Under the pieces are notes generated by a model, which had not been told where the DNA came from, did not search any database, and worked only from the letters and a program-made list of their open reading frames with translations. A stretch of DNA of 60,409 bases, counting the filler, from Dugesia japonica (Eukaryota), in assembly GCA_001938525.1 (NCBI GenBank). It is 5 parts of 5 records of this genome, joined end to end, with 100 filler letters (N's around TTAATTAATTAA, not from the genome) between each part and the next. Parts side by side here need not be neighbours in the genome. Positions count along the whole stretch, not along the records: positions 37,628 to 51,095 come from MQRL01647930.1; 4 more parts are not named here. One strand, written 5' to 3'. The position numbers and the translations under genes were made by a program. Numbering within the stretch: the first letter of the stretch is position 1; each line of letters begins with the position of its first letter. This document shows, piece after piece, positions 20,803 through 57,103 of the stretch.

Positions 20803-20867
20803 AGTAGGTAGATAGTGATGCATGTCCCCTATTGATTTTATCCGTAAAAAGACCCCTTTCCCTCCCC

Positions 20868-21490
20868 TTCAAAAATTTTTAAAAAGGGATAAAAATTTTA
20901 AAAGAAATTAAAAAAGAAGATAAAATTTTTAAAAAAGGGATAAATTTTTAAAAAGAAATAAAAAAGGGGATAAAACTTTTAAAAAGTGGATAAAATTTTA
21001 AAAAGAAAATAAAAAAGGGGATAAAATTTTTAAAAAAGGGATAAAATTTTAAAAAGAAATTAAAAAGGGGATAAAATTTTTAAAAGAAATTAAAAAAGGG
21101 TATAAAATTTTAAAAAGAAATTAAAAAGGCGATAAAATTTTTAAAAGAAATTAAAAAAGGGGATAAAAATTTTAAAAATGGGATAAATTTTTCAAAAGAA
21201 ATAAAAAAGAGGATAAAATTTTTAAAAGAAATTAAAAAAGGGGATAAAATTTTTAAAAAATGGATAAATTTTTTAAAAGAAATAAAAAAGTGGATAAAAC
21301 TTTTAAAAAGTGAATAAAATTTTAAAAAGAAATTAAAAAAGGGGATAAAATTTTTAAAAAGCGGATAAATTTTTAAAAAGAAATAAAAAAGTGGATAAAA
21401 NNNNNAAAAAGTGGATAAAATTTTAAAAAGAAATAAAAAAGGGGATAAAATGTTTAAAAGAAATTAAAAAAGGCGATAAAATTTTTAAAA
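20868..21490. repeat. Tandem array of ~20/31-bp units (AAAAAGGGGATAAAATTTTTAAAAGAAATT)
   Basis: Over 20 GGATAAA-type cores directly visible, starting about 65 bp inside the 20803 terminus. Confidence 0.95.
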
Positions 21491-28210: not shown

Positions 28211-28211
28211 T

Positions 28212-28731
28212 GATCATCACAAAGCTTTTTTGGTTGATTTGATCGTATACAGCTGGTGGTTAATTGATCAAATTCGAGTTTGCTCCAGCCTTTTTTCAAT
28301 ACCATTTTCAAAGCAATCAACATAATCTTGATGATGAATGTTGGTCTGTTTGAGCATTATTCCTTTGCTTTTCATTACTGATATATCCTCCTCCTCCCCC
28401 TCTGATAGTAATGAATACGATTTCGGTCGTAAAAAGATTCATTCTTTAAAACTCTTTCCCTTATTTTCATCCTTGAACTTGCCAATTTGAGCAGTTAAAG
28501 ATGTTGAAAATAGAGGATCATCTTGCTTGTAATTGGATGTGTCCATGAGTTTATCTTTAATCATCGCCGGTAAGAGTTGATCACGCAGACTCACATTTTT
28601 ACACTCTAAAAAAAACTGTCCGTATTGCCCGCGACAATGTAGATTTCGCAGTTGAAAATTTTGCGATAGGACTCCAACTTGTGATATTGCAGTTCATACA
28701 TATGCAGTTTTGAGAGATCAAGAACTGCTTG
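28212..28731 (-). pseudogene. polB: C-terminal fragment of a second protein-primed DNA polymerase B
   Basis: Manual translation (not in the ORF track): AVLDLSKLHMY...IVAGNTDSFF...MDTSNY...IGKFKDE...FLRPKSYS...KSKGI...SINHQLYTI. Homologous to 10042-10386, with two in-frame stops; runs off the scaffold end. Confidence 0.9.
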
Positions 28732-28831
28732 NNNNNNNNNNNNNNNNNNNNNNNNNNNNNNNNNNNNNNNNNNNNTTAATTAATTAANNNNNNNNNNNNN
28801 NNNNNNNNNNNNNNNNNNNNNNNNNNNNNNN
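28732..28831. other. Artificial scaffold-joining linker
   Basis: N44-TTAATTAATTAA-N44. Confidence 0.97.
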
Positions 28832-32150: not shown

Positions 32151-33189
32151 AACAATGACAGACTATTTTATTGTATCCAAATCCATATAATTGGCAACAC
32201 TATTTATAAAAAACTATATTACCAAAATAAAATAACTATTTGAACAAATTTTATTTAGTTTTTTTATTTGTTAAAATAATATTTTTATTTGTTAAAATNN
32301 NNNNNNNNNNNNNNNNNNNNNNNNNNNNNNNNNNNNNNNNNNNNNNNNTATTTGTTAAAATAATTTTTGTTCAATTTAAAAACATGATAAAAATGATTGT
32401 TCAAAATAAAAACATGATGTAAACAGTTGTTCAAATTTAAAACATGATGTGCTGGATTGTTCAAATTTAAAACATGATGTAAACAGTTGTTCAAATTAAA
32501 GAGATGACCCTAAAATTGTTCAAAAAAATGATGATCCGAAAAATCTTATGTAAAATAAAAATAATCCTTCCGATTGTTATTAAGCTTTATCAGCTTGTCA
32601 GAAATGAATTTTATTAAATTTCGTTAAATTTCGTTAAATTTACATCACTGAAATCATTGTCTTCTGAGAGAGTAAAACTGCCATAAGTCTCTGGCAGTAT
32701 AAGATAGNCAGTAGTGTAACATAGGAGGTTCGGTCCATCCGGGCGGTATTCTGCCGAAAACAAGAAATGAAACAAAACCAAATTAGGATTTCATTAAAAT
32801 AAAGAACAAGCTTCGATCAAAATAAAATTTATTTGTAAAAAAGTTCAAATTTTCGAAGAAGACTATTGTCTAATTATAAAACTAAATTACCTTAAAAATT
32901 AACATTTATTTTAAATAAGTTTGACTTTATATGACTTTCTTAGTCAATTCTATTTTAAAGTTTATAAACCATATTTTTAAAAAATATTCAATCACGACAT
33001 CAGGTAAATCCGAAAGTTTGTGGGGTTTTTGAATATGCCATGTAAATCACAGTATCGCAGTAAACATTTAAAAAAGTATAGATATTTAATGAAAGTTTGG
33101 TTAAAAATGTTATTAATTTTATTGTAATGAATCATTTTTTGTAATGATTTCTTTTTATTTAATTTCAAAAGGTTTGCTAATTTTGTTAA

Positions 33190-37527: not shown

Positions 37528-37627
37528 NNNNNNNNNNNNNNNNNNNNNNNNNNNNNNNNNNNNNNNNNNNNTTAATTAATTAANNNNNNNNNNNNNNNNN
37601 NNNNNNNNNNNNNNNNNNNNNNNNNNN
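37528..37627. other. Artificial scaffold-joining linker
   Basis: N44-TTAATTAATTAA-N44. Confidence 0.97.
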
Positions 37628-37811
37628 ATATTTTTTCGCATTCTGGATACATTTCATTTATTATTCTTCTTGCAAGATCTGAGAAAAAGAATAAATAAAT
37701 ACATAAGAATAAAATTTACCTCCTTTGGATATTTCTTCTCCATTTCTTAAAAGCATTTTGAAATTATCTGTGAACAGTAAAATAAATTGTATATATATAT
37801 ATATATATATA

Positions 37812-38230
37812 AGTATAGGTATATGGACGGTTTTAAGGCCGGGGGGTACCCCTCCCCACTTCAGATGAAAAATATTTTATGAAAAATGTCAAATGAAAAA
37901 TATTTCAAATGAAAAATGTCAGATGAAAAATGTCAAATGAAAAATATTTCAAATGAAAAATATTTTATGAAAATGCCGGGATGCAAATATTTTATGAAAA
38001 TGTCGAATGTAAAATATTTTATGAAAAATTGTTTTAAAGACTATTGTTTTAAATTGTATACCCAATCTCATTTCAGATGAAAAATATTTTATGAAAAATG
38101 TCAGATGTAAAATGTTTCATGAAAAATGTTCAACTAAAAATGTTCGACTAAAAAATATTTTATGAAAAATGCCAAACTAAAATATTTCAGATGAAAATGT
38201 CAAACCAAAATGTTTCATGAAATATTTAAG
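37812..38230 (+). repeat. Left terminal inverted repeat
   Basis: Exact reverse complement of the right end up to 38041/50682, then imperfect to 38230/50445. Contains a GGGGTACCCC palindrome and many ATGAAAAAT subrepeats. Confidence 0.95.
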
Positions 38231-38254
38231 CGGTTTAAATTTTTAATATAGAAA

Positions 38255-38869
38255 ATGAGTGTTAATAAAAAAGCTGTTCAAGAATTTTCTTTGGAAAATG
38301 TGATTGATGTAATGAGTGGCATGGTTGATATAAAAGAGGCAAATATAGATGAATTAATTAATTACTCAAAATGCGAATTTACAAAAGAAATTGCAGAAAA
38401 TAATTTAAAATTTATTAATCAATTATATGATAAATTAGAAGAATTGAATTTACCTGCAAAAAATAAAAATTATTTTAAAAACATTATAACTACTTTTATG
38501 ATAAAATTTACAAGTGATGAGTGCAAAAGTTTAGTGCTTGAATTACTTGAAGGAAAATATATAGCCGCTCTTCAAACTATTAAAGAAACTAATGAAAAAT
38601 ATCAATTAGAAAGAGATGAGCATAATGATTTAAGAAAAAAATATAATGAAGAATTAAAACCACAAAAAATTGGAAGGGGTTTTATTCAATATACACCTAG
38701 AAAAAGTGATGGAAAAAGACAATATGTAAAACATGAAGATGTTCTTAATTTAGTAGATAGATTATTTGCGGATCCTGAAAAATATTTACAACTTTCTAAA
38801 GATAGATTAATTAATATATCTACAAAAGGAAGCAAAAGTATTGCAAATGCACAGGCTAAATTAAGATAA
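38255..38869 (+). CDS. Hypothetical viral protein, 204 aa, helical/coiled-coil
   Basis: Intact ORF directly inside the left TIR with ATAGAAAATG start context; no recognisable motif. Confidence 0.75.
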   Translation: MSVNKKAVQEFSLENVIDVMSGMVDIKEANIDELINYSKCEFTKEIAENNLKFINQLYDKLEELNLPAKNKNYFKNIITTFMIKFTSDECKSLVLELLEGKYIAALQTIKETNEKYQLERDEHNDLRKKYNEELKPQKIGRGFIQYTPRKSDGKRQYVKHEDVLNLVDRLFADPEKYLQLSKDRLINISTKGSKSIANAQAKLR

Positions 38870-38882
38870 TAAGAAATAGCAA

Positions 38883-39194
38883 ATGGACTCAGTTTAATAT
38901 AAAACATTAATTGAATATAATTTTGAAAATAATTCAATAAAAAATTTTTGTAAAATTTATAATATTAGTAAAGTAACAGTAAAAAAATATTTAAAGAAAT
39001 GGAATATAAAATATAAAACAAACACATTTAAAATTTATCATAGAAATTTAAAAGGGCAGTTTATTTCTTTGATTGACACATTTGAAGGTGATAAAAAATT
39101 AAATGTTATTCATATTAAGAGCAATAGTGAATTATTTAATTGTGATGAAGTTGGAGAAAGGATGAAAAAATTATATGGGTTTAAAAAAAAATAA
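38883..39194 (+). pseudogene. Small HTH-like protein (104 codons) with a premature TAA at codon 5
   Basis: ATG GAC TCA GTT TAA, then an open frame YKTLIEYNFENNSIKNFCKIYNISKVTVKKYLKKW...YGFKKK*. The SI..FC....IS..TV..YL pattern resembles an HTH. Missing from the ORF track. Confidence 0.55.
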
Positions 39195-39336
39195 ATGGTA
39201 AAATGGAAAATGGAAAATGGTAAAATGGAAAATGGAAAAAAATGGAAAATGGTAAAATGGAAAATGGAAAATGGTAAAATGGAAAATGAAAATAAATAAA
39301 ATAAACACATGCATAAAAAAACACTATAATAAAAAG

Positions 39337-40665
39337 ATGATTAAATTAGATTTAGATGATAATATTCATTTTTCACATACATCAATTAAAAATGATTTAT
39401 TAATAATTTCTCCATCAGCATCATCATTAAACAAATTAAATTCTTCAGGTGAAATTGTTTTTCAATCTTTACAATCAACAAATCCACTTGATATTTGTAA
39501 TTCAATGTTATACTTTGAAATTGAAATTACAGTTGCAGATGTAACAAAAACAATATTAGAAAATAACTTCTTTCCTAGTTTATTTAGTTCAATGAGATTT
39601 ATCATAGGCTCATCAGAAGTTGAAACAGTTCATGATCCTGGTGTTATATCTACAATGTTAAATTTAATATCTACAACTGAAACATGGAAAACAGAATATG
39701 GTCAAATGTCAGGATGGATGCCAGATATAAATAAAGGTGACACTGAAGTAACAAGTTGGGATTGTAACATGGGATTTTATAACAGAAAGAAATTATATTC
39801 ATCTAAAACATTTGAAGGTTATTTTCAATTGAGAAATTTATTTGGTTTCATGCAAAATTATAACAGACTTTTATATAATACAATGATAGAGTTCAGATGT
39901 AATAGACAATTAGATGATAAATTAATATTTTATGGAGCAAAAGATGACACAGCAAAATTAACAATAAAAACTTTAGAACTTCACATTCCAGAATGTAATT
40001 TATTACCTAGAAAAGAATTATCAATATTAGAAAGAATAGCTACAGATAAGCCTATTAAAGTTTCTTATTTAAATAGAATAACTGGTAAAACTAATATTGA
40101 AACTGGTGGAAATTATANAATAAAAATTAGTAGTTTAGCATATCAACCTAGATTTGTTTTTATTTGTTTTAAAGATAATAAAATTTCAGAAGAAAAAAAT
40201 AATAATTTATTTATTCAAAAATCTACTAAAAAAGTTAAAGAAACAACCAAAGTTGGTGATAAAGAAGAAACAAAAGAAGTAATAAAAACCAGTTATTTAC
40301 AAAGTATACAATTAGTATTAAATAATACTTACTATCCAATAATCAAATGTGAATTTAACATGTTAAATAATCAAATGATTTATCCATACATGGCATATGT
40401 AAAATGTTGTCATCAATTTTTAACAGAACCACAATTATCATTAATGGATTTTGGTAATTTATATCCAATGTTTTGTTTTGACACTTCAGCGCATGATGAT
40501 AAAATGAATATTAATAATGTTGATGTAACACTAAAGATTACAAAAGATCCAGATTTTAAAGGTACTATTCATTGGTGCATACTTGAAGAAAAACATATTG
40601 AAATGAAATTATCCAACAGCAAAATTGTTATGATTGAAAATATTAGAGGTATTGATATTCAATGA
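39337..40665 (+). CDS. Major capsid protein, double jelly-roll (~442 aa)
   Basis: LNSSGEIVF, S.LYFE, NNFFPSLFS.MR..I...EVE....PG..STM, L..LFGF, PRFVFI.F, L.LN..YYP and PMFCFD.S match the Polinton/adintovirus capsid pattern. The track's 39271 start lies in a repeat, so ATG 39337 is preferred. Confidence 0.88.
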   Translation: MIKLDLDDNIHFSHTSIKNDLLIISPSASSLNKLNSSGEIVFQSLQSTNPLDICNSMLYFEIEITVADVTKTILENNFFPSLFSSMRFIIGSSEVETVHDPGVISTMLNLISTTETWKTEYGQMSGWMPDINKGDTEVTSWDCNMGFYNRKKLYSSKTFEGYFQLRNLFGFMQNYNRLLYNTMIEFRCNRQLDDKLIFYGAKDDTAKLTIKTLELHIPECNLLPRKELSILERIATDKPIKVSYLNRITGKTNIETGGNYXIKISSLAYQPRFVFICFKDNKISEEKNNNLFIQKSTKKVKETTKVGDKEETKEVIKTSYLQSIQLVLNNTYYPIIKCEFNMLNNQMIYPYMAYVKCCHQFLTEPQLSLMDFGNLYPMFCFDTSAHDDKMNINNVDVTLKITKDPDFKGTIHWCILEEKHIEMKLSNSKIVMIENIRGIDIQ

Positions 40666-40762
40666 AAAATTTTAAATATTAAATTTAAGAAATGAAAAAC
40701 TTCATATGTGACAATTGTGGTAAAATATTACGACGCTGTTAAATGATAAATTAAATAAATAG

Positions 40763-42127
40763 ATGAAGAATTTTATCTGTGAAGAATGTGGTAAAATAAT
40801 CTTAAAGAAAAATAAGTCAAGACATTTAGATTTATGCATTAATAAAGTAAAATTTCCTCCAGAATCAAGACATTTAGATTTGTGTATTAATAAAGTAACT
40901 CAATATATGGGAGGCGATATTCAAAATTCAAAATTTATATCTAAAATTTTAAAACCAATAACTACAGAAAAATATCCTGGTGAAAGACATTTATTTAAAC
41001 ATAATTACACTGGACCTGGAACGCGATTAGATATTAGATTAGATTCTGATAATATTCCAAATCCTGGTGAAGAACCAATTAATAAAGTTGATGAAGCCGC
41101 ATTAAAACATGACATTGCGTATAATTCTGAAAACATACGCGATCGTCATATTGCAGATGTAAATTTAATACATGATCTTAATAATATTGAAAATCCTACA
41201 TTAACAGAAAAATTTCAAAGAGCTCTTGTAAAATTAGCAATGAAAGGTAAAATAATAATTGGTAGCGGAGGCACAAAAAAGAATCCATATAAAAAAAGTA
41301 CAATTATAGATGAAGAATCTGATGACGAGCAAATTGAACAAAGAGATATTTTATCAAAAGAACTTCACAAAGAATATAAAAGACCTAAACATTTTAGAAA
41401 AGTAATTGTACATGCAAAAGATGACATTTGGTCTGCAGATTTAATATTTTATGGAATTGAAAGAAAAGGTAAAAATGTAATATTAACAGTTATAGATCTT
41501 TACACAAGATATGCATTCATAGAATTAACAAATCGAAAAACTGGTCCAGCAATAACAAAAGCATTTGAAAATATTATTGAAAAAAGTAATAGAGTTCCAA
41601 ATAAATTATGGGTTGATAAAGGTAAAGAATTTTATAATTCAACATTTAAANNNNNNNNNNNNNNNNNNNNNNNNNNNNNNNNNNNNNNNNNNNNNNNNNN
41701 NNNNNNNNNNNNNNNNNNNNNNNNNNNNNNNNNNNNNNNNNNNNNNNNNTTTCAACATTTTACTGCCGTTGGATCTCAACAAATAGATTTAAAATTATTA
41801 GAACAAATTGTAAATGATTACAATAACAGTGTACATTCTAGTATTAAACTTACACCTCAAAATGCTTCATTAAATCCTGAAAATGTTCTCCCTAAAAAGG
41901 CGAAGCCTTTTAATGAAAAGTTAAGATTTAAAATTGGAGATCGTGTAAGAATAACTAAAATAGGAAAAACTTTTCCTAAAGGTTATACATTTAAATGGTC
42001 AAAAAGAATTTATATAATTACAAAAATTTATCATGAGAAACCTTTTACATTTGAAATCTCAAATCTTAACGGCAACAAAATATTGGGAAGATTTTATAGT
42101 AATGAATTACAGAAATCAGGCTTTTAA
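40763..42127 (+). CDS. Zinc-finger + parvovirus-type phospholipase A2 + retroviral-like (rve) integrase fusion
   Basis: CEECGK...RH; HNYTGPGT...PINKVDEAALKHDIAY (PLA2 Ca-loop and H-D helix); IWSADL, LTVIDLYTRYA, LWVDKGKEFYN (first two catalytic D; the E falls in the N gap); FKIGDRVRI..KGY..KWS..GRFY..ELQK tail. Confidence 0.92.
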   Translation: MKNFICEECGKIILKKNKSRHLDLCINKVKFPPESRHLDLCINKVTQYMGGDIQNSKFISKILKPITTEKYPGERHLFKHNYTGPGTRLDIRLDSDNIPNPGEEPINKVDEAALKHDIAYNSENIRDRHIADVNLIHDLNNIENPTLTEKFQRALVKLAMKGKIIIGSGGTKKNPYKKSTIIDEESDDEQIEQRDILSKELHKEYKRPKHFRKVIVHAKDDIWSADLIFYGIERKGKNVILTVIDLYTRYAFIELTNRKTGPAITKAFENIIEKSNRVPNKLWVDKGKEFYNSTFKXXXXXXXXXXXXXXXXXXXXXXXXXXXXXXXXXFQHFTAVGSQQIDLKLLEQIVNDYNNSVHSSIKLTPQNASLNPENVLPKKAKPFNEKLRFKIGDRVRITKIGKTFPKGYTFKWSKRIYIITKIYHEKPFTFEISNLNGNKILGRFYSNELQKSGF

Positions 42128-42226
42128 ATGTAAAATGTAAAATGTAAAATGCAAATGTAAAATGTAAAAATGTAAAATGTAAAATGAAAAATATAAAGGG
42201 TTATGATTAAAATAAAAACATAGAAA

Positions 42227-42427
42227 ATGCGTATGTTAGATCCCACACCAAGCAAAGTTTATTATAAATATGAAGATGAAAATGATTACACACAAAGTGA
42301 AGAAAGTGAAAATGAAAATGAAAATGATTACACACAAAGTGAAGAAATTGAAGAAATTGAAAATAATTATGATAATGATAATTATCCGATTTTTAATTTA
42401 CCACGAGATAGAAATTATTTATTATAA
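42227..42427 (+). CDS. Small acidic protein (66 aa)
   Basis: Fills the integrase-ATPase gap; same ATAGAAAATG start context; internal ENDYTQSEE duplication. Confidence 0.5.
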   Translation: MRMLDPTPSKVYYKYEDENDYTQSEESENENENDYTQSEEIEEIENNYDNDNYPIFNLPRDRNYLL

Positions 42428-42448
42428 AAATTGCGAAGCTCATAAAGA

Positions 42449-43204
42449 ATGTCAACTCCTTTAGTCTGGAATAATAATTTAACAAAGTTTAATAATAAAG
42501 TTCTTCCTAATAATTTTAGATTATTAATTATAGGGTCTTCTGGTTGTGGTAAAAATATTTTATTAATGAAAATGTTATTAACTACAGATTTTTTAGATTA
42601 TGATACATTAATTTTTTATTCCACAACAATTAATCTATTTGAAATACAACTGTTATATTTAGGATTTGAAAATGGACTATCTAAAGATGAAATTTATTAC
42701 ATGTTTGAAAAACAAAGTTTAGTACCAAAAAATTTAACAACTCCAAATCAAGTTATAAATTATTATTTAGATAAAAAATTAGTAACTAAAAAATCTAGAT
42801 CAATAAATGTTACATTATCAAATAAACNTAATGAAATTATTTCATGTGACAAACTTTCAAGAGAAAAGAAAAATTTAATAATCTTTGATGATGTAGTTAA
42901 TGAAAAGAATCAAGAAATTCAAAAAAGTTATTTTACAAGAGGTAGACATTCAAATTGTAATGTAATTTATATTTCACAAACATATTATCATTTAGATAAA
43001 AACTCTATCAGAAATAATTCAAATTGTTACATATTTTTTAAGTTAAATAAAACTGATAGAGATAATGTTTATCATGAATTATTTTCTAATGTTTTTAATA
43101 ATAAATCTGAATTTGACTATGAAGTAAATTTACATTGGAAAACTAAATATAATTATTTTTACTTAAATAAAGAGACTGATGAAATGTTGGATGATTTATT
43201 CTAA
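42449..43204 (+). CDS. A32/FtsK-like genome-packaging ATPase
   Basis: Walker A LLIIGSSGCGKN, Walker B LIIFDDV, RGRH arginine finger, IYISQ, IRNN. Confidence 0.93.
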   Translation: MSTPLVWNNNLTKFNNKVLPNNFRLLIIGSSGCGKNILLMKMLLTTDFLDYDTLIFYSTTINLFEIQLLYLGFENGLSKDEIYYMFEKQSLVPKNLTTPNQVINYYLDKKLVTKKSRSINVTLSNKXNEIISCDKLSREKKNLIIFDDVVNEKNQEIQKSYFTRGRHSNCNVIYISQTYYHLDKNSIRNNSNCYIFFKLNKTDRDNVYHELFSNVFNNKSEFDYEVNLHWKTKYNYFYLNKETDEMLDDLF

Positions 43205-44317
43205 TTGTTTGATTTCAAAAAATCTTTTAATCTTTTTTAATTCCTTTTCTACTATAGTTGTAAATGACCAAGTTGATTTTAATACATCTGGATATTTATC
43301 AGCAAATTTATAAAATTTTATTATTTTATTTATAAAATTAATTTTATATGGAATTCCAAGTGAATTTATATGTTTTTCTACTTTATCATTATTTTTAAAT
43401 TTAGTTTTTATTATTTCAAAGAAATATCCCAAATTATAATAACTTATTAAAGTAATTCGTTTTCCAATACTTAAAGTAAAATACCAATTTTTAATATTAT
43501 CATCTAAATTTGCTGCAGACTGTTTGAGGTTATTATTAACATTTGGATAAACAAAAAGATTTACAATTGATTCTGAAAATCTTTTAAAAAATTCTTTATC
43601 ATTTTCAATTTTATCATCTTTAATAATTTCATCTTGAATTTCAATTATTTGAATTTCATCTTTAATAATTTCATTTTGAATTTCAGACTGTGCGGAGCCC
43701 AGCGAAGTGCATTCAGATTCAGATTCAATATTTTCATCTTTAATAATTTCATTTTGAATTTCAGATTNNNNNNNNNNNNNNNTTTCATCTTTAATAATTT
43801 CATTTTGAATTTCAGATTCAGATTCAGATTCAGATTCAGATTTAATATTTTTATCTTTAATAATTTCATCTTTAATAATTTCATCTTTAATAATTTCATC
43901 TTTAATAATTTCATTTTGAATTTCAGATTCAGATTCAGATTCAATATTTTCATCTTTAATAATTTCATCTTTAATAATTTCATCTTTAATAATTTCATCT
44001 TTAATAATTTCATTTTGAATTTCAGATTCAGATTTAATATTTGCCACATAATCTATAACATGTTTTTTAATATTATTATCTTGTCTAAGATGTGGTAATC
44101 TACTTCTTTTACGCTTTTCTTCATCTATAATATAAGGTTGTACGGAGTCCAGCGCGGCGCCTTTCGGTTTTTCAGAGCGAACATATTCATCCTCATCAAA
44201 TTTTATTTTTCCATCAACACAAAATATATTTTTATTAATTTTGATTATACAATCATCACAACATAAATTATGTATTTGTCCATAATAAATTTTTGTATTA
44301 AAATAATGAGCCTTCAT
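43196..44317 (-). CDS. Hypothetical protein (373 aa) with (IIKDE)n/SESEIQNE repeats and a helical C-terminal domain
   Basis: Long open frame convergent with the ATPase (stops overlap); 15-nt and 6-nt tandem units at 43600-44040. Confidence 0.75.
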   Translation of the reverse strand: MKAHYFNTKIYYGQIHNLCCDDCIIKINKNIFCVDGKIKFDEDEYVRSEKPKGAALDSVQPYIIDEEKRKRSRLPHLRQDNNIKKHVIDYVANIKSESEIQNEIIKDEIIKDEIIKDEIIKDENIESESESEIQNEIIKDEIIKDEIIKDEIIKDKNIKSESESESESEIQNEIIKDEXXXXXXSEIQNEIIKDENIESESECTSLGSAQSEIQNEIIKDEIQIIEIQDEIIKDDKIENDKEFFKRFSESIVNLFVYPNVNNNLKQSAANLDDNIKNWYFTLSIGKRITLISYYNLGYFFEIIKTKFKNNDKVEKHINSLGIPYKINFINKIIKFYKFADKYPDVLKSTWSFTTIVEKELKKIKRFFEIKQLE

Positions 44318-44378
44318 TTTCTATATATAAAATTTAATCATATCAACTGTTCGGATCCGAACAAATTGGGCCCCTTGG

Positions 44379-45008
44379 TTATATTCCTAATTTCAACTTC
44401 ATCTCATTAATAATTTTATTTTGATTTTCAATTATTAATTTAAAATTTTCTTCCTTCTTTTTTTTATTTCCAAAAATTAATTCATGTACTTCATTTACCA
44501 TGTTCTTACTAATAGTTAATTCTTCATCAGTTAAAATTTCATCATGTACAGCTTTCTCTTGAAATAGAAATAATTTATTTTTAACACACTCAAGATTCTT
44601 AATTAATTTTTCATATCTTTCTTTTCTAGATTTAATTAATGAAGAATTTAATGCTCCTATTACAGGCAGAACTGATACAGCTCCTGTAATACAAGATACA
44701 CCAATTGCAGCAACAGCTGCTCCAACTGGTGTGATAAATATTACTCCTGCTATTCCAATTCCTGCACTTACAACTATTTGTGTATATTTAATAGTAGAAT
44801 CTATTCTACTCCATCTTCTATGTATCTTCTTATAATGTTTAATTTTATCTTTAATAAAGTAAAGATCATTTTCAAAATCTCTAATTCTAGATAATGCAAG
44901 TTTATTTTTTAAATCACGAAGCTCACTTCCAGCATAATCTTCTTGTAAGCTAGGATATAATTGTCCGGAGGCCAGCGTAGCGAATTTATTTATATTTTCT
45001 TCTTCCAT
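44379..45008 (-). CDS. Conserved adintovirus-type hydrophobic-hairpin membrane protein ('GasderminX'-like)
   Basis: LYPSL, a helical basic region, a Gly/Ala-rich double hydrophobic segment (VSAGIGIAGVIFITPVGAAVAAIGVSCITGAVSVL) and a KA..D..LTDEE tail. Confidence 0.7.
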   Translation of the reverse strand: MEEENINKFATLASGQLYPSLQEDYAGSELRDLKNKLALSRIRDFENDLYFIKDKIKHYKKIHRRWSRIDSTIKYTQIVVSAGIGIAGVIFITPVGAAVAAIGVSCITGAVSVLPVIGALNSSLIKSRKERYEKLIKNLECVKNKLFLFQEKAVHDEILTDEELTISKNMVNEVHELIFGNKKKKEENFKLIIENQNKIINEMKLKLGI

Positions 45009-45013
45009 TTTTA

Positions 45014-47982
45014 TTATGAAAATTTTATTTTAATTATAATTTTATTAATGGAAATTCCTTTAGGTAAAGTTAATGAGAAAAAAGAAGTATTTTTATTAGT
45101 ATGCGAAAAATAAAACATTTTAGTTATATAATCATAAAAATTATTTTCTAATGAACTCCCTTCCTCACCGGTGAACATTTGTCTAATATTATTAATTTTA
45201 TATTCTATAAATTCACTTTCAGAATAACCGTTAACATAATAATTAATATTACAAACAATAAATGTATTTAAAGAAATAATTAATGGTTCTTTAAGATAAA
45301 AACATTTTTGATTGTCTATATTTTTTATTACACCTTTTCTTGTAAAATCTAAATACTTTACATTCTCTCTATTAATAGAATAATATGGAAGATTATCTGT
45401 TTCACTATCATTATCTATATGAAACCATAATATTAAATTTTTAGTTAAATTATTTTTATGTGGCAACCAATTATCAATTAAATGTTTAAGTGTTAAGTCT
45501 TCACCATTATATTCTTTTATTAAAATATTAATTCTATCAATAAAAATTTTATGAAGTTTTGGTTTTATTCTTTCATATTCTTTTAATAATTCTTCAGGAA
45601 TTTTATAACCAAGTAATTTAACATTTAAATTATTTAAAAAAATTCCTTTAGGTAAAATTATTTGTATAAAATTTATATTACTAACATTTAAAATTTCTTT
45701 ACTTTCANNNNNNNNNNNNNNNNNNNNNNNNNNNNNNNNNNNNNNNNNNNNNNNNNNCTAACATTTAAAATTTCTTTACTTTCACGATAAATTTTCATAA
45801 GATTATCATCAGGTTTAACAAATAAAAATGAAACTGCAAAATGATTAATTTTAATGATATATGTAAATTTTTCAACTTCACAAAAACCATCTANACTTAT
45901 ACTAACTTTATATTTTAATTTTGTATATAATGAAATAGTTAAAGAATCTTTAATATTAAAATAATAATCACTAAATGTTGTATGTTTTATGCAATCTTTT
46001 CTTATAAAATCTAAATCATACACATATTTATCTATAACAGTAAAATATGGAAGAGTATCATTTTTCTTAGTAGGAAGTATTGAAAATATTATATCTTCAT
46101 TAGTTATATTTGAGTAAGGTAAGTAATTATCAATTAAATGTTTTATATTTTTATTATCATATGTTTTAGATAAAATGTTAAATTTATCAATGTAAATTTT
46201 ATGTAGGTTTGGTTTTATTGTTTCATATTCTTTATTTAATTCTTCATAAATTTTTAACTTGTATGTTTTAATAATTAAGTGATTAAAATAAATTTTTTCT
46301 GGTAAAATTATTTCAATATAATTTATTTGTTCAGATACTAACTTTGCAAAATCAGTACTTTCACGATAAATTATTATTTTATTATCAGGTGTAAAATAAT
46401 ATTCCCATGATAATGCTATATGATTAATTTTAATAATGTAAGTAAATCTTTTTTCATGATGCCCTTCTATAAATATACAAAGTTTTTCATTAATGTTAAG
46501 ATATAATTTAATAATTAAAGATTCATCAAGATAAAACCCTTTTGTAATCATTCTACCGTTTCTTTTAAAATCTAAATTCTTTACTTGATTATTTATTTAA
46601 AATTGTGGAAGAATTTTTTCTCTAAAACAGATAATTGTTAATATTGAATTATCATCTGGCATAAAAACATATGGTAAGTAATTATCAATTAGTTCTTTTA
46701 AATTTTTAACTATTGTTTCAGAATATTTTTCTTTAGATGATTTAAATAAAATATTAATTCTATCAATAAAAAATTTATGCATACTTGGTTTTATTCTTTC
46801 ATATGCTTTAGTCAATCTATCAATAATTTCTAATTTATATATATTAACACTTAAATTATGTAAATAAATTCCTCTTGGTAATTCTATTTCAATAAAATTT
46901 ATATTAACATCTTTATTAACTTCAGTACTTTCACGAAAAATATCAACTCTATTAGTTATATCTTTTCTATATATAAATCTATAATATAAATTGTTAATTT
47001 TAATGGTATAAAAAAATTTTTCAATATCACAATAACCAATTATACCTATACTAATTTTTTCATTTATCTTTGTATGTAAAATAATAATTAAAGGTTCTTC
47101 AAGATAATAATATTGAATGTTAGAAATAAGTTTCATTACACCTTTTCTTTTGAAATCTAAATTGTGAATATATTTACTCATAATACTAAATTGTGGAAGG
47201 GTTTCATGTTTTTCATAACACCAAATTAAAAAAATTATTTTATTAGTTTGTATAAAATAATATGGTAAGTAATTATCAATTATTTCTTTTATACTTTTAT
47301 ATGTTACATCAGAAAGTGTTTCTTTATAAGTGTTAAATAAAACATTAATTCTATTAATGAAATAACTATGTAGTTTTATATTTCCAATTTCTTTATGCAC
47401 TTTATTAATTTTAAATCTAAAATCTTCTATATTTAATTTAATTATATTAATATAATTTAAATATTCATCAAATGTTTTCTTATCTATATCAAGATGTAAT
47501 TTTATAATTTTATTATCTAATGTGATAATTTCTTTTTTAATTTTCCATGATAAATCGTTACTACTTAACTTTTTTAAATTAAAAATTAAATCACTTCTTT
47601 TAAATGGGAAAAGTACATATTTTATTCTTTTAATATCAGAACCAACATTATCAAATGACTCATCATTAGTGACCTTTGAAAGATTTTTAATTTTAAATTG
47701 TAAATAAATTTTATTAATTGTGGATTCATTAACTTTTAATATTTTTGAGAAGATAAATTCGTGACTTTGTAATTTATCTTCTAATTGTTTAATATATTTT
47801 AAATTAACTGCATCATTGAGATCTTTTGGATCTTCTGTTATTTTTAAAGATGTAATTGTGTCACCTGTTTCATTTACATATTTATTGTCATTATTTGCAT
47901 TAGCTAATCTAATTCTAGCATCAACTCTTTTCATTATTTGTGCATTGCCTGTTTTATATATACTTTCTCCAAATCTATTCAT
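45014..47982 (-). pseudogene. Fibre/spike-like protein (~963 codons, four ~190-aa repeats) with one internal TAA; split into three ORFs in the track
   Basis: ORFs 46597-47982 and 45688-46551 share a frame and are separated by a single TAA. The 50-N gap (45708-45757) is flanked by the same 27 bp, and collapsing it puts 45014-45466 in frame. N-terminal GD..T.L....DP.D..DAVN.KYI is a fibre-shaft-like motif. Confidence 0.75.
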
Positions 47983-48409
47983 TTATTAATGATAATTTAT
48001 CATATAAATTTTTCATCTCTAAAATTATATCTTCGAAGTTGGTATGTTTAAGTGAATATAAAAAATAAATACATAAGACACCACAAATTTTAGTACCAAA
48101 ATGTTGCACTTGAATTTTATTATATTTCTTTATAAATTTTTCTAATTCTTCTAAAGGTTTCAATCCAAAAGAGTCAAAATAAAAACCTTTAGTATAGGCA
48201 ACCCAATGAGTTCCTTTTTGATTTGTATTTTGATAATTAAAAATATAATTACCTTTATTTAATATTTTACATTTTTCATTTTTCATATAAATTTCTAAAG
48301 GTAGATTTAAAAATTCCGCAATTGAATATAAATCAAAATTTGTAGTTGTAGAGATTCCAAATGTTTTTAAGAAATCAATTAAATTATACTTTTGGTCGCC
48401 TCGCTCCAT
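47975..48409 (-). CDS. Adenain-like cysteine maturation protease
   Basis: GTHWVA, YFDSFG..P and Q.Q......CG..C give the H-D-Q-C catalytic order. Confidence 0.93.
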   Translation of the reverse strand: MERGDQKYNLIDFLKTFGISTTTNFDLYSIAEFLNLPLEIYMKNEKCKILNKGNYIFNYQNTNQKGTHWVAYTKGFYFDSFGLKPLEELEKFIKKYNKIQVQHFGTKICGVLCIYFLYSLKHTNFEDIILEMKNLYDKLSLINE

Positions 48410-48426
48410 TTATTAAATGTAAAATG

Positions 48427-48807
48427 TTACATGCGATATTTTCTTAAATGAACTAAAATAGAAATTGTTTCTTGGTTAAAATCTATTGTGTTAAAGTTTT
48501 CATCTACCACATTAAATATTAAACTTGAAATGTAATTTGTATTAATTATAGAATAAATTGGAACTGATTGTCTTTCAATAATTTTATGACCAAATGGAAC
48601 TGTGTTTATTGGAAATGAATATAATAAATTTATTTGTTTAGATTCTCCATTTGGAGTTTTTACATAATTATCTTTAACAATATTACAAGTTACATTTATC
48701 ATGTTAATAGGTGAAATGTCAATTTTCGTTTCTGAATAATAATTTCCTGGTGGATAGGATTTTACTGAGAAACTGAAAATTTTATGAAAGAAAGATTTAT
48801 TATCAAA
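48427..48807 (-). pseudogene. Minor capsid protein (penton, single jelly-roll), C-terminal half only
   Basis: INVTCNIV, LYSF...VP.GHKI.E, DEN..IDF..E.I. The frame stays open upstream of the track's Met (FDNKSFFHKIFSF...SETKIDI) up to the junction with polB, with no native start. Confidence 0.75.
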
Positions 48808-50365
48808 AGTTTATTTCACCTATAAATTCTTTTATTAATTTATTTTCTTTAATATCATCTAATGTTTCACTAATTTCTTCTAAAAAGTTAAAGTAATCAT
48901 TAAAAATGTTTTCACCTGAAAATTTAATATATTTACTTTCTAATAAATTTGGATAATCACTATGAAGATAAACACCTAATGATATTGGTTTTTGTTTTTT
49001 TGTATTAATATCTGTGTAAGCTTCAAAATCTCCAACAAGTACAAATGGAATTTTATTTTTCTGATAAAATTTATTAAATGAATAATAATCAGTATGTTCA
49101 AATNCAATGTTATTTGGTTTATGTTTTATACAAAGTTCTTGATGTTTAATTAATCTTTCTTCACTTGAATAACAATTCATACATCTGATGCATGGATAAT
49201 TTTTATTTTTATTAGTTGTAAAAAATACTGTTATATCTCGACATAAAATATAATGATTTTTATATACTAACAAATTACATTTATTTTCTTCTGGATCTGG
49301 TTTTGATATGTGATGTGAAATGTGTAATGGTTCAAGTTTTTTATTATCATTTACACTGAAAACATTTATTTCTAAATTATTTAATTTCTCGAATTTACTT
49401 ATATCATCAATTTTGATTGGAAATGTAACCTTGTCATATTTTAATTCTGATAAATGTGGAATGTAATTATTTACACGAGTTGGATTTTCAAATAAATGTT
49501 TATGTGCTAAAATTGAATAAAGAAAACATTTATTATCATCTTTATTTTCTATATTTATTACTCCTGGTTTTTTAAATGGTAATTTACGATATGTTGCTCC
49601 AGCTAATGATTGATATTTAGAAAGATCTAATTTATAATCAATTATGTTCACCATTGTCCATCCTGAACCTTCCTTATCTTCATCTTCAATGTATCTTTGT
49701 AATTCATTAAATATTTCATTAACACCATTTGATATTTCATTTTCAATTGTAAATCTTTTATTTTTTGAATATGATGTAAAATCTTTTTCAACATTTTCAT
49801 TATTTATTTCTTTTTCATATCTACAAGTTACTGTCATACTTACAACAATCTTTTTACCATAATTAAAATACTTTGTAATAATTTCTTTAACTTCTTTTTT
49901 AAATGTATTAATTTCTCTAACTATTTCTTTAACATTTTTAGTCATTGACACTTTACTTTCTTTGAAATATTCAATTTCATAATCTTTATATTCTCTTAAA
50001 AGATCTCTAATTTCTGGATCAAAATCAATTGATTCTTCACCAGGTAATTCACCAAATAAAATTTTGTTAACTGTTTCTTTATGTGTTGGAGAATTGTAAT
50101 GTGCCTTTGCGGTGGATTGTCTAGAAAATGTTTTATTGCAAAATAAACACTTTAATGGAACCTTTTCGGGATTTCCACAAAGTGATGAATTTAAATGTTC
50201 ACGTAGACCATTTTCCGTTTTAAATAGCCTGTGACATTTTTGGCATTGAAATGATGATGTTTCATTTCTAAAACAAGTTCTAGATCTACTATGTCCAATT
50301 AACCCTGCTAAGTTTTTAAATAGCTTTCCACAGTTAGGACATTTATTTATGTTTCTTTCTGTCAT
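48803..50365 (-). pseudogene. polB: pPolB N-terminal part with three C2H2-like zinc fingers, truncated early in the exonuclease domain
   Basis: CPNC..H, CQKC..H, CLFC..H..H; EGSGW; INIEN.D.KCF.YSILA; FEKLN; HY; C.RC...H...C; FVLVGDFEA (ExoI). The frame then ends without polymerase motifs A/B/C. The likely start is MTERN (50365), because the track start lies in the TIR. Confidence 0.9.
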
Positions 50366-50444
50366 TTTATAATCAAATAATTTAATCACACCTACTTTTT
50401 TAGGGTTAATTTTTATTTTATAAATTACTCTTAAATTAATTCCT

Positions 50445-50911
50445 CTTAAATATTTCATGAAACATTTTGGTTTGACATTTTCATCTGAAATATTTTGGTT
50501 TGACATTTTCATCTGAAATATTTTAGTTTGGCATTTTCATCTGAAATATTTTAGTCGAACATTTTTAGTTGAACATTTTTTTATTTTGGCATTTTTCATA
50601 AAATATTTTGGTTGAACATTTTTAGTTGAACATTTTTCATAAAATATTTTTCATCTGAAATGAGATTGGGTATACCCCCCTGTCTTTAAAACAATTTTTC
50701 ATAAAATATTTTACATTCGACATTTTCATAAAATATTTGCATCCCGGCATTTTCATAAAATATTTTTCATTTGAAATATTTTTCATTTGACATTTTTCAT
50801 CTGACATTTTTCATTTGAAATATTTTTCATTTGACATTTTTCATAAAATATTTTTCATCTGAAGTGGGGAGGGGTACCCCCCGGCCTTAAAACCGTCCAT
50901 ATACCTATACT
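50445..50911 (-). repeat. Right terminal inverted repeat
   Basis: Reverse complement of 37812-38230. Confidence 0.95.
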
Positions 50912-50955
50912 TATATATATATATATATATATACAATTTATTTTACTGTTCACAG

Positions 50956-51095
50956 ATAATTTCAAAATGCTTTTAAGAAATGGAGAAGAAATATCCAAAG
51001 GAGGTAAATTTTATTCTTATGTATTTATTTATTCTTTTTCTCAGATCTTGCAAGAAGAATAATAAATGAAATGTATCCAGAATGCGAAAAAATAT
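50956..51095 (+). CDS. Two small exons of an unidentified spliced gene in the element's flank (mirrored at 37628-37767)
   Basis: CACAG|48-nt exon 50956-51003|GT..41-nt intron..TCTCAG|exon from 51045. The spliced frame is open: NFKMLLRNGEEISKGDLARRIINEMYPECEKI. Confidence 0.5.
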
Positions 51096-51195
51096 NNNNN
51101 NNNNNNNNNNNNNNNNNNNNNNNNNNNNNNNNNNNNNNNTTAATTAATTAANNNNNNNNNNNNNNNNNNNNNNNNNNNNNNNNNNNNNNNNNNNN
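51096..51195. other. Artificial scaffold-joining linker
   Basis: N44-TTAATTAATTAA-N44. Confidence 0.97.
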
Positions 51196-51224: not shown

Positions 51225-51720
51225 GGAAGAGAGTAACTCAAATTTCTACATCAAAGTATCTATTCGATAGAGAATTCTACACTGATTCCGAGTGTTATCA
51301 CTTAAAATCATCAATCCTTATAGAAGACGAGTAAAATGCAAAATACAAATTGCAAAATAAATGGTCATTCACAGGATTTGAACCCATCACTGAGGAGCTG
51401 TAAAAGAAAGACTATTACAACTGTATCATGTATTCAATAAAAATCTTTCAATGTTCATTATTAATACGGTTAAAATTCATTAAACTTATCCCAGTTGAAA
51501 TAAATCAAAAACAAGTACTTATTATTGTTTGCACACCAAACAATTGTAGTATCCACCGATGAACCATTGATTTCTTTAAAATATAAAAAGTAACTCAAAT
51601 TTGAACATCAATGTATCTATTAGAGAGACAATTTTACGCTGAGTAAGAAAAACATGGTGATAAACCGTCAATCATTAACCATGATGGAATTCAATTAAAA
51701 ATCAAGTGAAAAAAGTCGAC
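51225..51720 (-). repeat. Two tandem copies of the 7215-7370 repeat family
   Basis: Shared GTAACTCAAATTT..ACATCAA.GTATCTATT core. The first copy has CAGGATTTGAACCC, the reverse complement of a B-box. Confidence 0.5.
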
Positions 51721-53209: not shown

Positions 53210-54150
53210 TATTTTCCATCGTTATTCACAACTTTTCCCATCTTTCAGGTAAATGATGAATACCCTTATGAAAAAAGTCTTTGTTCTTGGATTGAATGAA
53301 GTTGTCGATGAATTTTCGTGTATCTTCTATATTCCCGAATCGTGCATCCAAAAGACTGTGCTGCATGGAACAAAATGAGTGAAAATCTGAAGGGGCTATA
53401 TTTGGAGAATAAGCTTGGTATGGTAGAACTTCTCATTTTAATTCCATCGATGTTTCCCTAGTTTTTAATGCAACATGAGGTCTAGCATTGGCGTGCAGAA
53501 GAATAACTTTGTTCTGTTTGGTCGCATAATATAGCCGTTTTTAAATTAATTTCTCTTCCAACTGCTTCAATTGGCGACTGTATAAATCTGCAGTAACAGT
53601 TTTTGATGATTTTAACAGCTCATAATAAAGAACTCCGTGCATGTGCTACCAGATACAAAGAAGAACTTTGTGACCATGAATATTTCATTTCGGCTATGAT
53701 GTGCTTGGTTCTCCAGGATTTAACCATGATATTTTGCGATTGAGATTAGAATAATATATTCACTTTTCGTCTCTGGTCACAGTTAGATGCAAGAAAGACT
53801 TTTGTTTGTGTGTATTGAGAAGCGAAAGACAAGTGGTGAGTCGGCTGGTAATGTTGTTTTCGGATAAATCATGAAGAACCCATTTTCCTTCTTTCTGAAT
53901 CTTTCCCAACTGATATAACCGTCGAATTATGGTGCTCTGGTTTACATGTAACTTTCTTGCCAATTCTACACTCGATTGAGTAGAATTCTCTTTCAAAAGT
54001 GCTTCCATGTCATCCGAACTTATCTCATATGATCGCTCAGTGCGTTCTTTATCGTTCAAATCAGAATCACGGCTTTTCAAGCGTCGAAACCATTGACGAC
54101 ATGAGCTCTCGGCTATTGCTCCATCACCATATGTATTGCAAATTATCCGA
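53210..54150 (-). mobile_element. Decayed near-full-length mariner transposase
   Basis: ELARKL..QSTI.RRL..LGKIQKEGKWV.HDL, VTRDEK.IYY, KVLLCIW, LLHANARPH, AYSPNIAPSDF. Confidence 0.92.
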
Positions 54151-55912
54151 GTNNNNNNNNNNNNNNNNNNNNNNNNNNNNNNNNNNNNNNNNNNNNNNNN
54201 NNNNNNNNNNNNNNNNNNNNNNNNNNNNNNNNNNNNNNNNNNNNNNNNNNNNNNNNNNNNTAATCAATATTGACTTACTTAAACAAAATACAAATTTTTA
54301 GATATTATATTATTATTAATATTACTTAAATTCAGCATATACATAAGCGATGTGAACTTAAGCATACCCCTAATATTTCAATTGGTTGCTCCACTTCCTT
54401 GTGTGGGCTGAACTCAATAGATTGTGAAACAACTTAGTCAGACTTCTCCGCTCTTCGGAAAAATTTAAATAATTTCTTTTAGAAATGCAATTAATAATCT
54501 GCAAACAGATTCCAAGCTCGTTGCGCTTGAACATTATTTGTAAATAATATAATTGATACAAGTGAGCGATTGCATCGTGTACCTTTGATCACCAGCTCAT
54601 ATGATTTGAGTTAGTGGTATCTATGAAGAGTCAATCAAGAGATTCATCTATGGAATGCAATTTGAAATGCTTGATCCAACAAACTTGAAATTCTGGTATG
54701 ATTATTAACCGTTGACTATTAACCGGGTCAGGGCTCACATATTCTGTCCCTGTCACAATATATGTTGTTCACAAGAAATATTAGCCCAAGCAGCTTTTTG
54801 CATTCAAAACTATATAAAATATCAAAGCTATGAGATTTCAACTACAGAAAGTTCGTAAAAGAAATAAGTAGTGAAAAAATTTAATAGCCTCAGATAAATA
54901 AAAAAAATACACTTCTGTAGCACAATAATTGAAAGTTGATAAATGTGCTGAAAATATACATGGGCAGACCACAGGCGCTGTTCCAAAGGACCAAGATGCT
55001 CTGGAATCCTTATCGATTCAATCACATTGAAAGAGGTATTTAAATGAAAGTGATGTGATATATTACATGTGTAATCCATTGTGTAATCCATGTAATTCTT
55101 TGCCGCATCTTGTTAAAAAGAAAATTTCATGGATTAAGAAAAATACAGAAAAAAAGAATTTAAGGTTCTGAAATAAACTTGACTAAGTCGAGCTAACATT
55201 CTAGCTCGCTTAACTCAACGAAATGAATGCAACCAAGAAGTTTGTGAGAGATTCAGAATCACCGGGTCAACCACGAAAATGTAAATGTGGCATACATAAT
55301 TTCTTGTTATCTTTACAGAATAAGTCTCTAGAAGATGGTCGAAATGAATAACGAAAGAATATCGTTTGGAAATCCAATAATTCTTTAAAAAAACATGAGA
55401 ATCAGTTAGAAATTTATGTTTTTTATCATTTATATATCAATGTTTGACGCTATTTCTCAGTAGTTGTTAAAGTTCCAAAACAATTATAAATCTTCTACCT
55501 ACTTAATTATTTACAATTTACATTGTATCAAGATGCAAATGCTTTTTTAATTTATATATTCATATTAACAATCAATATTAGAAGTCATAGTTTAATATTT
55601 ATTCATAAATAATATTTAATAACATTGATCATTCTAAAAGGTTACAAGACAGTTTCGAATAATAGGTAATTTAAAAAATTATTTTTAAATTGATTTTTAC
55701 CATTGACCTCTAATATTAACCTTTTATAAATAAATATCTTTTAATGATTACCATTTAAAAATAAATTGTATGATTTTCGTATTTGAAGTTTTTAGACTAT
55801 ATTGTTTTAATATATATAATTTTGACTTAAATTTCTATCGTAAATTCTTAGGATTTAGTTATGAGTGTTAACTATTAATGTAAACTTATAATTCCTATTA
55901 CAATTTTTGAAA

Positions 55913-57103
55913 ATGTATTCTTTGTGTATAGATGTGTGGAATTTTATTAAAAACCCGATTGTATTAATGTTTTTGTTTTTATTTGGTTTCATTCAAATGA
56001 TAGTGATTCTAGCAACTATAAATTCTAACAGTATAAACACAATATCAGAAGTTAATCGAAAATTAGTTTCAAAATCTGTTCAGTTAGACTGGCGTTTTAA
56101 AACAGCAATTAAAGTTGAAATCCAATCTGACATTAAAGTGGAAACTAAAGAGAATAATACAATATTTGTTCCAGAAATTATACAGTATGGAAGCGAAGAC
56201 TATCAATATCCTTTGCTTGTAGATATGCTGGATCTTGTAGATAAGATCAAATCTGGTCAAAATGTTACTGTTAATCCTATTAATAATCTTATTTTTCCTT
56301 ACATCATACAAAACGAGAATCTTTGTCAATCAGATAATAATGTAGATTTATTAATTTTAATAAAAAGTGATCCCAGGAATGTTATTCCTCGAGATGTGAT
56401 TCGTTCTACATGGGGTAAATTAAATTGCTGGGGAAATAGAAATATAAAACGAGTATTTCTATTTGGAAATTTATCGATTAATGAAAGTAAAATCGTTAAA
56501 CATATAGAAATGGAACAACAAGTGTACAAAGATATTGTTCAAAGTGGCTTTATCGATCATTATTATAATAATACTTATAAGTTGATGTTGGGGGTTACTT
56601 GGGCGACGTCATATTGTAGAAATGCCAAGTTTATTATGTTCGTTGACGATGATTACTTTATTCATCCTCGAGCGGTTTTATCGTATTTGGAGTCTATCAG
56701 CTCACCATTACGCCATCGACTAGTCAGTGGTTATGTTTGGCGGATGGCTGTTCCTCAACGAAATAAGCAGACTAAATGGTTTGTGTCTAAGGAGGATTAT
56801 CCTTGGTCATTTTATCCCTCGTATTGTTCTGCTGGGAATTTTTTCATCTCGATGAATGTTGCAATCGATATATCGATAGCGATGAAATATACGAAATTTT
56901 TACGATTTGATGACGTCTTTCTCGGCATAGTATTACATAAATTACTCATGGTTCCAATGCATCTTAGTAACGTATTTTCATTCAATCCTATCACGAGGAA
57001 CTCACCGAGTTATCATCAAATCATTTCAAGTCATGGATATAAATCATCACATCAAATCATTGAAACATGGGTCGACCTCAACTGCACAAATTTCTGTGTT
57101 TGA
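55913..57103 (+). CDS. Beta-1,3-galactosyl/N-acetylglucosaminyltransferase (GT31, brainiac-like), single-exon type II membrane protein
   Basis: N-terminal TM segment; LLILIKS...R..IRSTWG; F.D.YYNNTYK; FVDDD (DxD); KWFVS..DYP...YP.YC.AG; DDVFLG. First ATG is 55913 (the track uses TTG 55907). Confidence 0.93.
   Translation: MYSLCIDVWNFIKNPIVLMFLFLFGFIQMIVILATINSNSINTISEVNRKLVSKSVQLDWRFKTAIKVEIQSDIKVETKENNTIFVPEIIQYGSEDYQYPLLVDMLDLVDKIKSGQNVTVNPINNLIFPYIIQNENLCQSDNNVDLLILIKSDPRNVIPRDVIRSTWGKLNCWGNRNIKRVFLFGNLSINESKIVKHIEMEQQVYKDIVQSGFIDHYYNNTYKLMLGVTWATSYCRNAKFIMFVDDDYFIHPRAVLSYLESISSPLRHRLVSGYVWRMAVPQRNKQTKWFVSKEDYPWSFYPSYCSAGNFFISMNVAIDISIAMKYTKFLRFDDVFLGIVLHKLLMVPMHLSNVFSFNPITRNSPSYHQIISSHGYKSSHQIIETWVDLNCTNFCV

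Follow-up and report, generated by a model that had tools for sequence, protein, structure and literature searches.

Polintons (Mavericks, adintoviruses) combine protein-primed replication, RVE-type integration and packaging in a double jelly-roll capsid (PMC4028283, PMC11161782, PMC8502044), and most endogenous Mavericks of vertebrates are degraded (PMC8097293). Here we consider a Polinton element of 13.1 kb, or 13,100 nucleotides (nt), at positions 37812-50911 of a 60,409-nt stretch of DNA, filler included, from Dugesia japonica (GenBank assembly GCA_001938525.1), hereafter the window, where it lies inside the single contig MQRL01647930.1 (37628-51095). We read it as an integrated, defective and decaying fossil copy of a Polinton, with a probability of about 0.78. 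What is new is a defective Polinton copy with one orphan gene; the kind of element is already known.

Among described systems, the element seems most like the group 2 Maverick-Polintons or Alpha adintoviruses (Polintoviricetes; e.g., the Sf Mavericks of Spodoptera), with which it shares terminal inverted repeats (TIRs), the vOTU-bearing N-terminus of pPolB (the protein-primed DNA polymerase B), the RVE integrase, A32 ATPase, adenain, capsid, penton and parvovirus-type PLA2. The placement is suggested by the PLA2, which is called common in group 2 (10.64898/2026.06.19.733378), and by the sequences of the pPolB relatives, 29 of 35 of which carry an endonuclease VII-like motif; such a domain is listed for the Sf Maverick pPolB (PMC5803895). 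PF03175 is listed for two of the same 35, and the element itself has no polymerase domain. It differs from group 2 in that its PLA2 is fused to the integrase, where theirs is a separate PLA2X gene, and in having neither the polymerase core nor one half of the penton. The polB-less polintons of Pieris butterflies are likewise TIR-bounded and without a working polymerase, but LINE or Gypsy sequences travel in them as cargo and there are indications that they still move, whereas the element has no cargo and keeps part of pPolB (10.1101/2025.02.07.637071). Finally, Polinton-like viruses have large modular fibres, encoded beside virion genes and built from repeated carbohydrate-binding-type beta domains, among which tandem laminin-G, discoidin or lectin domains are described (PMC12220804), and "Lectin" and "Fiber" appear as labels in figure legends of PMC8502044. 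The fibre-like gene of the element shares this plan but has no sequence similarity to any family and adds a helical segment to each repeat.

The truncated polymerase and penton

An earlier note on this DNA, made from the sequence alone, had placed the element at the coordinates given above, which hold (the first letters are AGT, the last ACT), and had described 12 genes in two convergent blocks; their order is confirmed, six genes on the plus strand being followed by six on the minus strand (Table 1), with coding frames filling 11,660 of the 13,100 nt. Its assignment to the Polintons/adintoviruses stands on the gene set and the capsid fold, and its calls of a capsid (Pfam DJR-like, E 1e-12), of PLA2 with an rve integrase and of an A32 ATPase are upheld, the Peptidase_C5 and HTH matches being weak. 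Of the features looked for as marks of Polinton descent, the TIR ends, an RVE integrase, a pPolB-family gene with an N-terminal vOTU, an A32 ATPase, adenain and a double jelly-roll capsid are present. Those of an autonomous Polinton are not, as the six frames of the element hold no polymerase that bears Exo II/III together with Pol A, B and C and, judged by sequence, the complete single jelly-roll penton is represented by its C-terminal half only. The element is thus a Polinton by descent that fails as an autonomous one.

Table 1. Annotated features of the element, its contig ends and the scaffold linkers (positions in the window; aa, amino acids)
Feature	Position	Strand	Remarks
Scaffold linkers, artificial	15976-16075, 28732-28831, 37528-37627, 51096-51195		
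Outer 184 nt	37628-37811		162 nt resembling host exon/41-nt GT-AG intron/exon, then (TA)11
Left TIR	37812-38242	+	Perfect to 38041 (230 nt), imperfect after; 14-30-nt AAAATG-rich tandem units
ORF1, 204 aa	38255-38869	+	Only a sub-threshold DUF816 match, E 5e-4
Small HTH gene	38883-39194	+	In-frame stop 38895-38897; weak HTH match
Major capsid protein, double jelly-roll (as modelled), 443 aa	39334-40665	+	One N at 40118
Zinc finger-parvovirus-type PLA2-RVE integrase fusion, 454 aa	40763-42127	+	Without chromodomain
Acidic ORF, 66 aa	42227-42427	+	42-nt duplication; no match
A32/FtsK-type packaging ATPase, 251 aa	42449-43204	+	Atypical residue after Walker A lysine
Acidic-repeat protein, 373 aa	43196-44317	-	Central acidic tract of 15-nt repeats; unique ends without match
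Hydrophobic hairpin protein, 209 aa	44379-45008	-	SLATT_1 E 0.003, below cut-off
Fibre-like gene	45014-47982	-	N-terminal fibre-type motif, then four ~190-aa helix + jelly-roll repeats
Adenain-type cysteine protease, 144 aa	47975-48409	-	His, Asp, Gln and Cys motifs aligned with two relatives
Penton (minor capsid protein), C-terminal half	48427-48810	-	Profile positions 120-242
Truncated pPolB	48803-50341	-	Three C2H2 fingers, N-terminal (terminal-protein) region, vOTU Cys/His motifs, Exo I
Right TIR	50433-50911	-	Perfect 50682-50911
Mirror of outer 184 nt	50912-51095		Ends at scaffold linker

The 35 relatives of pPolB are 899-1405 aa long (best E 1e-24), and the element retains the vOTU Cys/His and Exo I motifs; its frame ends just past Exo I, ahead of the endonuclease VII-like insert, at a point where the seven relatives that align to the frame end run on for another 729-865 residues. 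The frame is therefore about 730 residues short of its full-length relatives. Could the core lie elsewhere in the element? That idea is rejected, as the 35 full-length relatives align within it only at 48833-50026, apart from one chance match (E 0.49), and the Exo II, Pol A, Pol B and HNH motifs are found in none of its six frames, the Pol B motif being carried by 32 of the 35 relatives. The same search recovers polymerase-domain remnants elsewhere in the window (10075-11189 and 28178-28731), and is thus sensitive enough.

The penton tells the same story. Its frame, which overlaps the pPolB stop, matches three pentons of 243-259 aa (blastp E 3e-9 to 3e-8; profile independent E 1e-9) in their second halves only, and the window has no N-terminal half. 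The match comes from blastp and the profile; when the window was searched by tblastn with the three pentons, there was no match at E 1. A single internal deletion of about 2.5 kb explains both losses. Its junction, at approximately 48810-48870, lies in continuous sequence, with no N in 45895-49103, and restoring its length would bring the element from 13.1 kb to about 15.6 kb, a size close to those of two Polinton loci found in GTDB (14.6 kb for L004 and 15.4 kb for L003). With the polymerase core and half of the penton gone, the element alone cannot replicate or build normal vertices, so that neither "near-complete" nor "full virion module", as the earlier note had put it, describes it.

By analogy with the family, the parent would have had a linear genome replicated by protein priming at its inverted repeats and integrated by the RVE integrase; the ATPase would have packaged the DNA, the capsid being a double jelly-roll one with pentons at its vertices, and the protease would have matured the particle. 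The present copy then lost about 2.5 kb, which took away the core of the polymerase along with the penton's first half, and came to carry stops. It is conceivable, though unlikely, that it is instead a non-autonomous mobile derivative, which supplies ends, terminal protein with vOTU, integrase and capsid itself and depends for polymerase and penton on a helper, an intact Polinton in the same cells. Neither end has indeed been lost, the vOTU Cys/His motifs are still there, collapsed ends in the assembly are what one expects of a multicopy element, and the butterfly elements are reported to be still mobile without polB (10.1101/2025.02.07.637071). Yet two genes are cut in mid-domain by the deletion, relaxed selection is suggested by HTH and fibre genes that carry stops and by the departure in the ATPase Walker A, and the window holds neither a second copy nor an intact helper.

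The capsid, whose jelly-roll fold the earlier note had wished to see modelled, scores 48 bits against Pfam PF21738 (cut-off 27) and yields an AlphaFold model with a mean predicted local distance difference test (pLDDT) of 81 and a predicted template-modelling score (pTM) of 0.85. Foldseek matches the model to the double jelly-roll capsids of iridovirus, African swine fever virus, mavirus, Paramecium bursaria chlorella virus 1 (PBCV-1) and Sputnik, with TM scores of 0.48-0.61 and an E of 1e-12 for the first four, and the protein is, as modelled, a true double jelly-roll. All 23 of its relatives are unnamed (40-57% identical, the best match being 53%), and none with genomic context was found in GTDB; identity to three ordinary Polinton loci is 20-23%. 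In a 22-row tree of unnamed relatives and misbinned GTDB loci, it groups with five relatives (99/98) within a clade of 17 rows, apart from five Polinton loci of GTDB bins. As single proteins without genomic context, the unnamed relatives (capsids P0036-P0058, PLA2-integrases P0059-P0133) have a similar capsid and a similar finger-PLA2-integrase layout. The "undescribed lineage" of the earlier note thus stands in part: the best capsid relative is only 53% identical and none has a name, but the comparison set is one without named Polintons. The ATPase matches Pox_A32 (Pfam, E 8e-10), and the protease matches those of Polinton loci at E 1e-12 with its catalytic motifs aligned, its Peptidase_C5 match falling below the Pfam cut-off.

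Lesions, terminal repeats and flanks

First, the deletion is not the only lesion. Stops interrupt the HTH gene, near whose start no alternative ATG was found, and the second repeat of the fibre gene (46597-46599), both in continuous sequence. The residue after the Walker A lysine of the ATPase differs from that of five of five relatives, and the integrase departs from its relatives at eight of 75 conserved columns (rank 2 of 40, against a median of 2.6%) in a leave-one-out test that is confounded by relatedness. Decay is nonetheless moderate rather than extreme, most frames being long and open. These truncations, stopped genes and departures do not bear out the earlier note's "most ORFs intact" or its recent insertion.

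Several observations, including that confounding, pull the other way. No break is visible in eight of the 12 frames, and the capsid departs at an unremarkable eight of 95 conserved columns (rank 5 of 16). The assembly is gappy, with mis-resolved ends, and lone stops could be consensus errors. Integration itself is something that we infer, neither a true host junction nor a target duplication being readable in the mirrored ends. Might the deletion and the stops all be assembly errors, then, and the real element intact and recent, as the earlier note held? The element does contain three multi-N gaps and four single Ns, its ends are mirrored, and one gap conceals a 27-nt overlap: the frame change at 45708 in the fibre gene, at a 50-N gap, is for this reason rejected as a real lesion and is probably an assembly overlap. 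We nevertheless regard wholesale error as quite improbable, considering that the junction and both stops lie in continuous sequence and that every one of several independent lesions would need to be mistaken.

Second, the ends require caution. The earlier note's TIRs are there, with 230 perfect nt followed inward by an imperfect extension of about 200 nt; they end in AGT/ACT without the doubled AGT of vertebrate elements, AGT being the end motif of vertebrate Mavericks (PMC8097293). However, the perfect repeat is 414 nt long, extending 184 nt past both proposed termini and reaching the exact contig ends on both sides. Of the outer 184 nt, 162 nt (50934-51095, plus strand, and its mirror 37628-37789) are probably a host gene fragment adjoining a TA microsatellite: behind an acceptor come two exons, the first of 48 nt, with a 41-nt GT-AG intron between them, and the spliced sequence reads open. 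None of 326 other 162-nt windows and none of 3000 shuffles shows this pattern, which was defined post hoc, so that its significance is overstated. The host-like sequence suggests that the element went into an intron, in a host whose introns are very short. Identical flanks that halt at the same base are best read as one collapsed repeat that the assembler probably placed twice, and with the outer flank mirrored at both ends, repeat identity cannot date the insertion; the proposal that 100% TIR identity signals a recent insertion is rejected, as the perfect repeat includes 184 nt of outside DNA at each end. Likewise, a TATATA stands on each side of the element, but it is palindromic and lies within the microsatellite, and the flanks are mirror copies, so that it provides no evidence of target duplication.

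The same ends invite another reading, in which the contig would be the linear genome of a free virus, with true terminal repeats that are longer than 414 nt and take in the (TA)11. The element does fill one linker-bounded contig with identical ends, and its GC content is 22.3% against 28.6% in the rest of the window. We find this very improbable given the exon/intron-like outer 162 nt (with the post hoc caveat above), the AGT that follows the TA tract with no base between and resembles the end motif described in PMC8097293, and the unlikelihood of a virus with stops and without a polymerase.

The PLA2-integrase fusion, the fibre-like gene and other accessory frames

Third, the accessory content, which the earlier note called unusual, is so only in part: the PLA2-integrase fusion and the SLATT-like hairpin protein have precedent, while the fibre-like gene is an orphan. 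In the fusion, the PLA2 domain scores E 1e-8 and rve exceeds the Pfam cut-off; two catalytic Asp residues are conserved, and the third catalytic residue falls within a 99-N gap. Among the best 120 of the 231 relatives found, 72 carry both Pfam domains by table count, nine have the N-terminal finger, one fusion relative is named from a pseudoscorpion, and the finger-PLA2-integrase layout is shared at up to 52% identity. With at least 72 relatives carrying both domains, a fusion unique to this element is rejected. In two of the GTDB loci (L001 and L002) the two domains adjoin in different frames. The integrase of the element lacks the C-terminal chromodomain that occurs in a few fusion relatives (e.g., P0139 and P0163), as do most close relatives.

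Glycine motifs flank the PLA2 of the 72 fusion relatives listed, with a Gly-Gly-Asp before it (60/61, 49/61 and 63/69 aligned rows) and a Gly-x-Gly after it (72/72 and 61/72). Sites of the adenovirus protease resemble these motifs (PMC4246237), and we hypothesize from the sequences that the fusion is cleaved there, in which case it may be a packaged polyprotein. Telling against this, the strict adenovirus protease consensus occurs in three of 16 delimitable linkers, and a claim that strict adenain sites are conserved is rejected.

The fibre-like gene is more singular. Its N-terminal motif matches phage virion proteins weakly (E 0.008) and appears in none of 5000 shuffles, a figure that overstates significance, as the motif was defined post hoc. 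The four repeats, each with its own helical segment, are 30-47% identical to one another, and the first (46822-47442) is unbroken. Its first 461 aa have no match among 1.84 billion representative proteins; nor has the gene any match in the Atlas, PDB sequences, Pfam, phage genomes or 424 further comparison targets, and Pfam detects no S74 chaperone or collagen domain in it. AT-biased, divergent sequence can escape such searches, which therefore are no proof of uniqueness. Modelled singly, an unbroken repeat reaches a pLDDT of 77, mostly near 90 in its beta part, which takes the form of a galactose-binding-domain-like jelly-roll: the best match is a binary-toxin receptor-binding domain (Z 10.6; root-mean-square deviation 2.8 over 116 residues), many carbohydrate-binding modules and the turret protein of Sulfolobus turreted icosahedral virus (STIV) follow at Z 8-9, and the weak viral matches include phage tail proteins. 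On the other side of the balance, the fold comes from a five-row alignment of one repeat, and ciliary proteins that do not bind sugar score Z 9.4, so that the fold is no proof of sugar binding. On the model, the gene most likely encodes a multivalent attachment fibre, whose four repeats would bind surface glycans multivalently. The PLA2 and the hairpin protein would help in membrane crossing.

No published description of the PLA2-integrase fusion or of the fibre was found in the literature searched, with Repbase, subscription papers and the sequence supplement of PMC8502044 outside its coverage, a similar fibre or fusion being conceivable in Repbase or that supplement; the available texts on a nematode Polinton (10.1101/2023.08.22.554363), of PMC3671162 and on a coral polintovirus (PMC11131425) contain neither. 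A rather unlikely composite would make the element a helper-dependent satellite Polinton of an undescribed clade that keeps its terminal-protein/vOTU primer but is rid of polymerase and penton, with its integrase packaged in a protease-cleaved polyprotein together with PLA2 as entry factor, and with attachment through a new four-domain lectin-fold fibre.

As for the remaining frames, Polinton locus L001 holds a weak relative of the hairpin protein (E 0.004), and Polinton-like viruses widely carry SLATT genes (PMC12220804). Domain and homology searches yield no assignable match for ORF1, the acidic ORF or the acidic-repeat protein, and the 66-aa acidic ORF may not be a gene. Tandem AAAATG(T/G) units cluster in both TIRs, upstream of the capsid gene (39193-39297) and downstream of the integrase (42126-42197); the element has 58, a density of 4.4 per kb where the DNA outside has 1.2-1.4, and they are possibly regulatory or packaging motifs. 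An Rfam search gave no match.

The wider window and what the element means

Elsewhere in the window are two further pPolB remnants, both frameshifted and broadly of the element's type (10075-12106 and 28178-28731, both on the minus strand), the second cut by a scaffold linker. They are distant from the element, the DNA match amounting to just 45 nt at 78%, and the host has encountered Polintons repeatedly. An integrase scan of GTDB returned 39 loci, three of which served as comparators and none of which is a close relative; Polinton-type gene sets occur there in bacterial bins (L001:2788-13725, L003:1921-14945, L004:1627-14651, L009 and L020), L003 and L004 looking near-complete with terminal repeats, and these contigs are probably misbinned eukaryotic DNA.

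The contigs of the window are joined by artificial linkers of the form N44-TTAATTAATTAA-N44, so that neighbours need not adjoin in the genome; long inverted repeats seen between linkers are dismissed as artefacts. Of 195 flanking frames scanned, only transposon remnants exceed the cut-off, and remnants are seen of piggyBac (4534-5724, minus), mariner (13644-14015 and 53763-54152, both minus) and Gypsy (27167-27923, plus) type. The window has a single clear host gene, an uninterrupted 403-aa frame of the galactosyltransferase family (55892-57103, plus; PF01762, E 3e-45). This flanking content fits an AT-rich eukaryotic, probably animal, genome. There are AT-rich tandem arrays at 20821-21541 (period ~50 nt), 9259-9625 (~101) and 32367-32542 (~30), and three copies, 72-79% identical, of an 86-nt interspersed repeat (7218-7303, 51229-51314 and 51586-51671).

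Finally, eukaryotic genomes commonly contain degraded Polintons, and the present copy is no candidate for an active virus, so that the significance of the copy as such is modest. Its genes reach somewhat further. The fibre-like gene provides a sequence-orphan candidate attachment protein in a group about whose virions and receptors little is known, and the PLA2-integrase fusion, which is widespread in databases, would, if it is cleaved at maturation, explain how the integrase is carried inside the Polinton particle.

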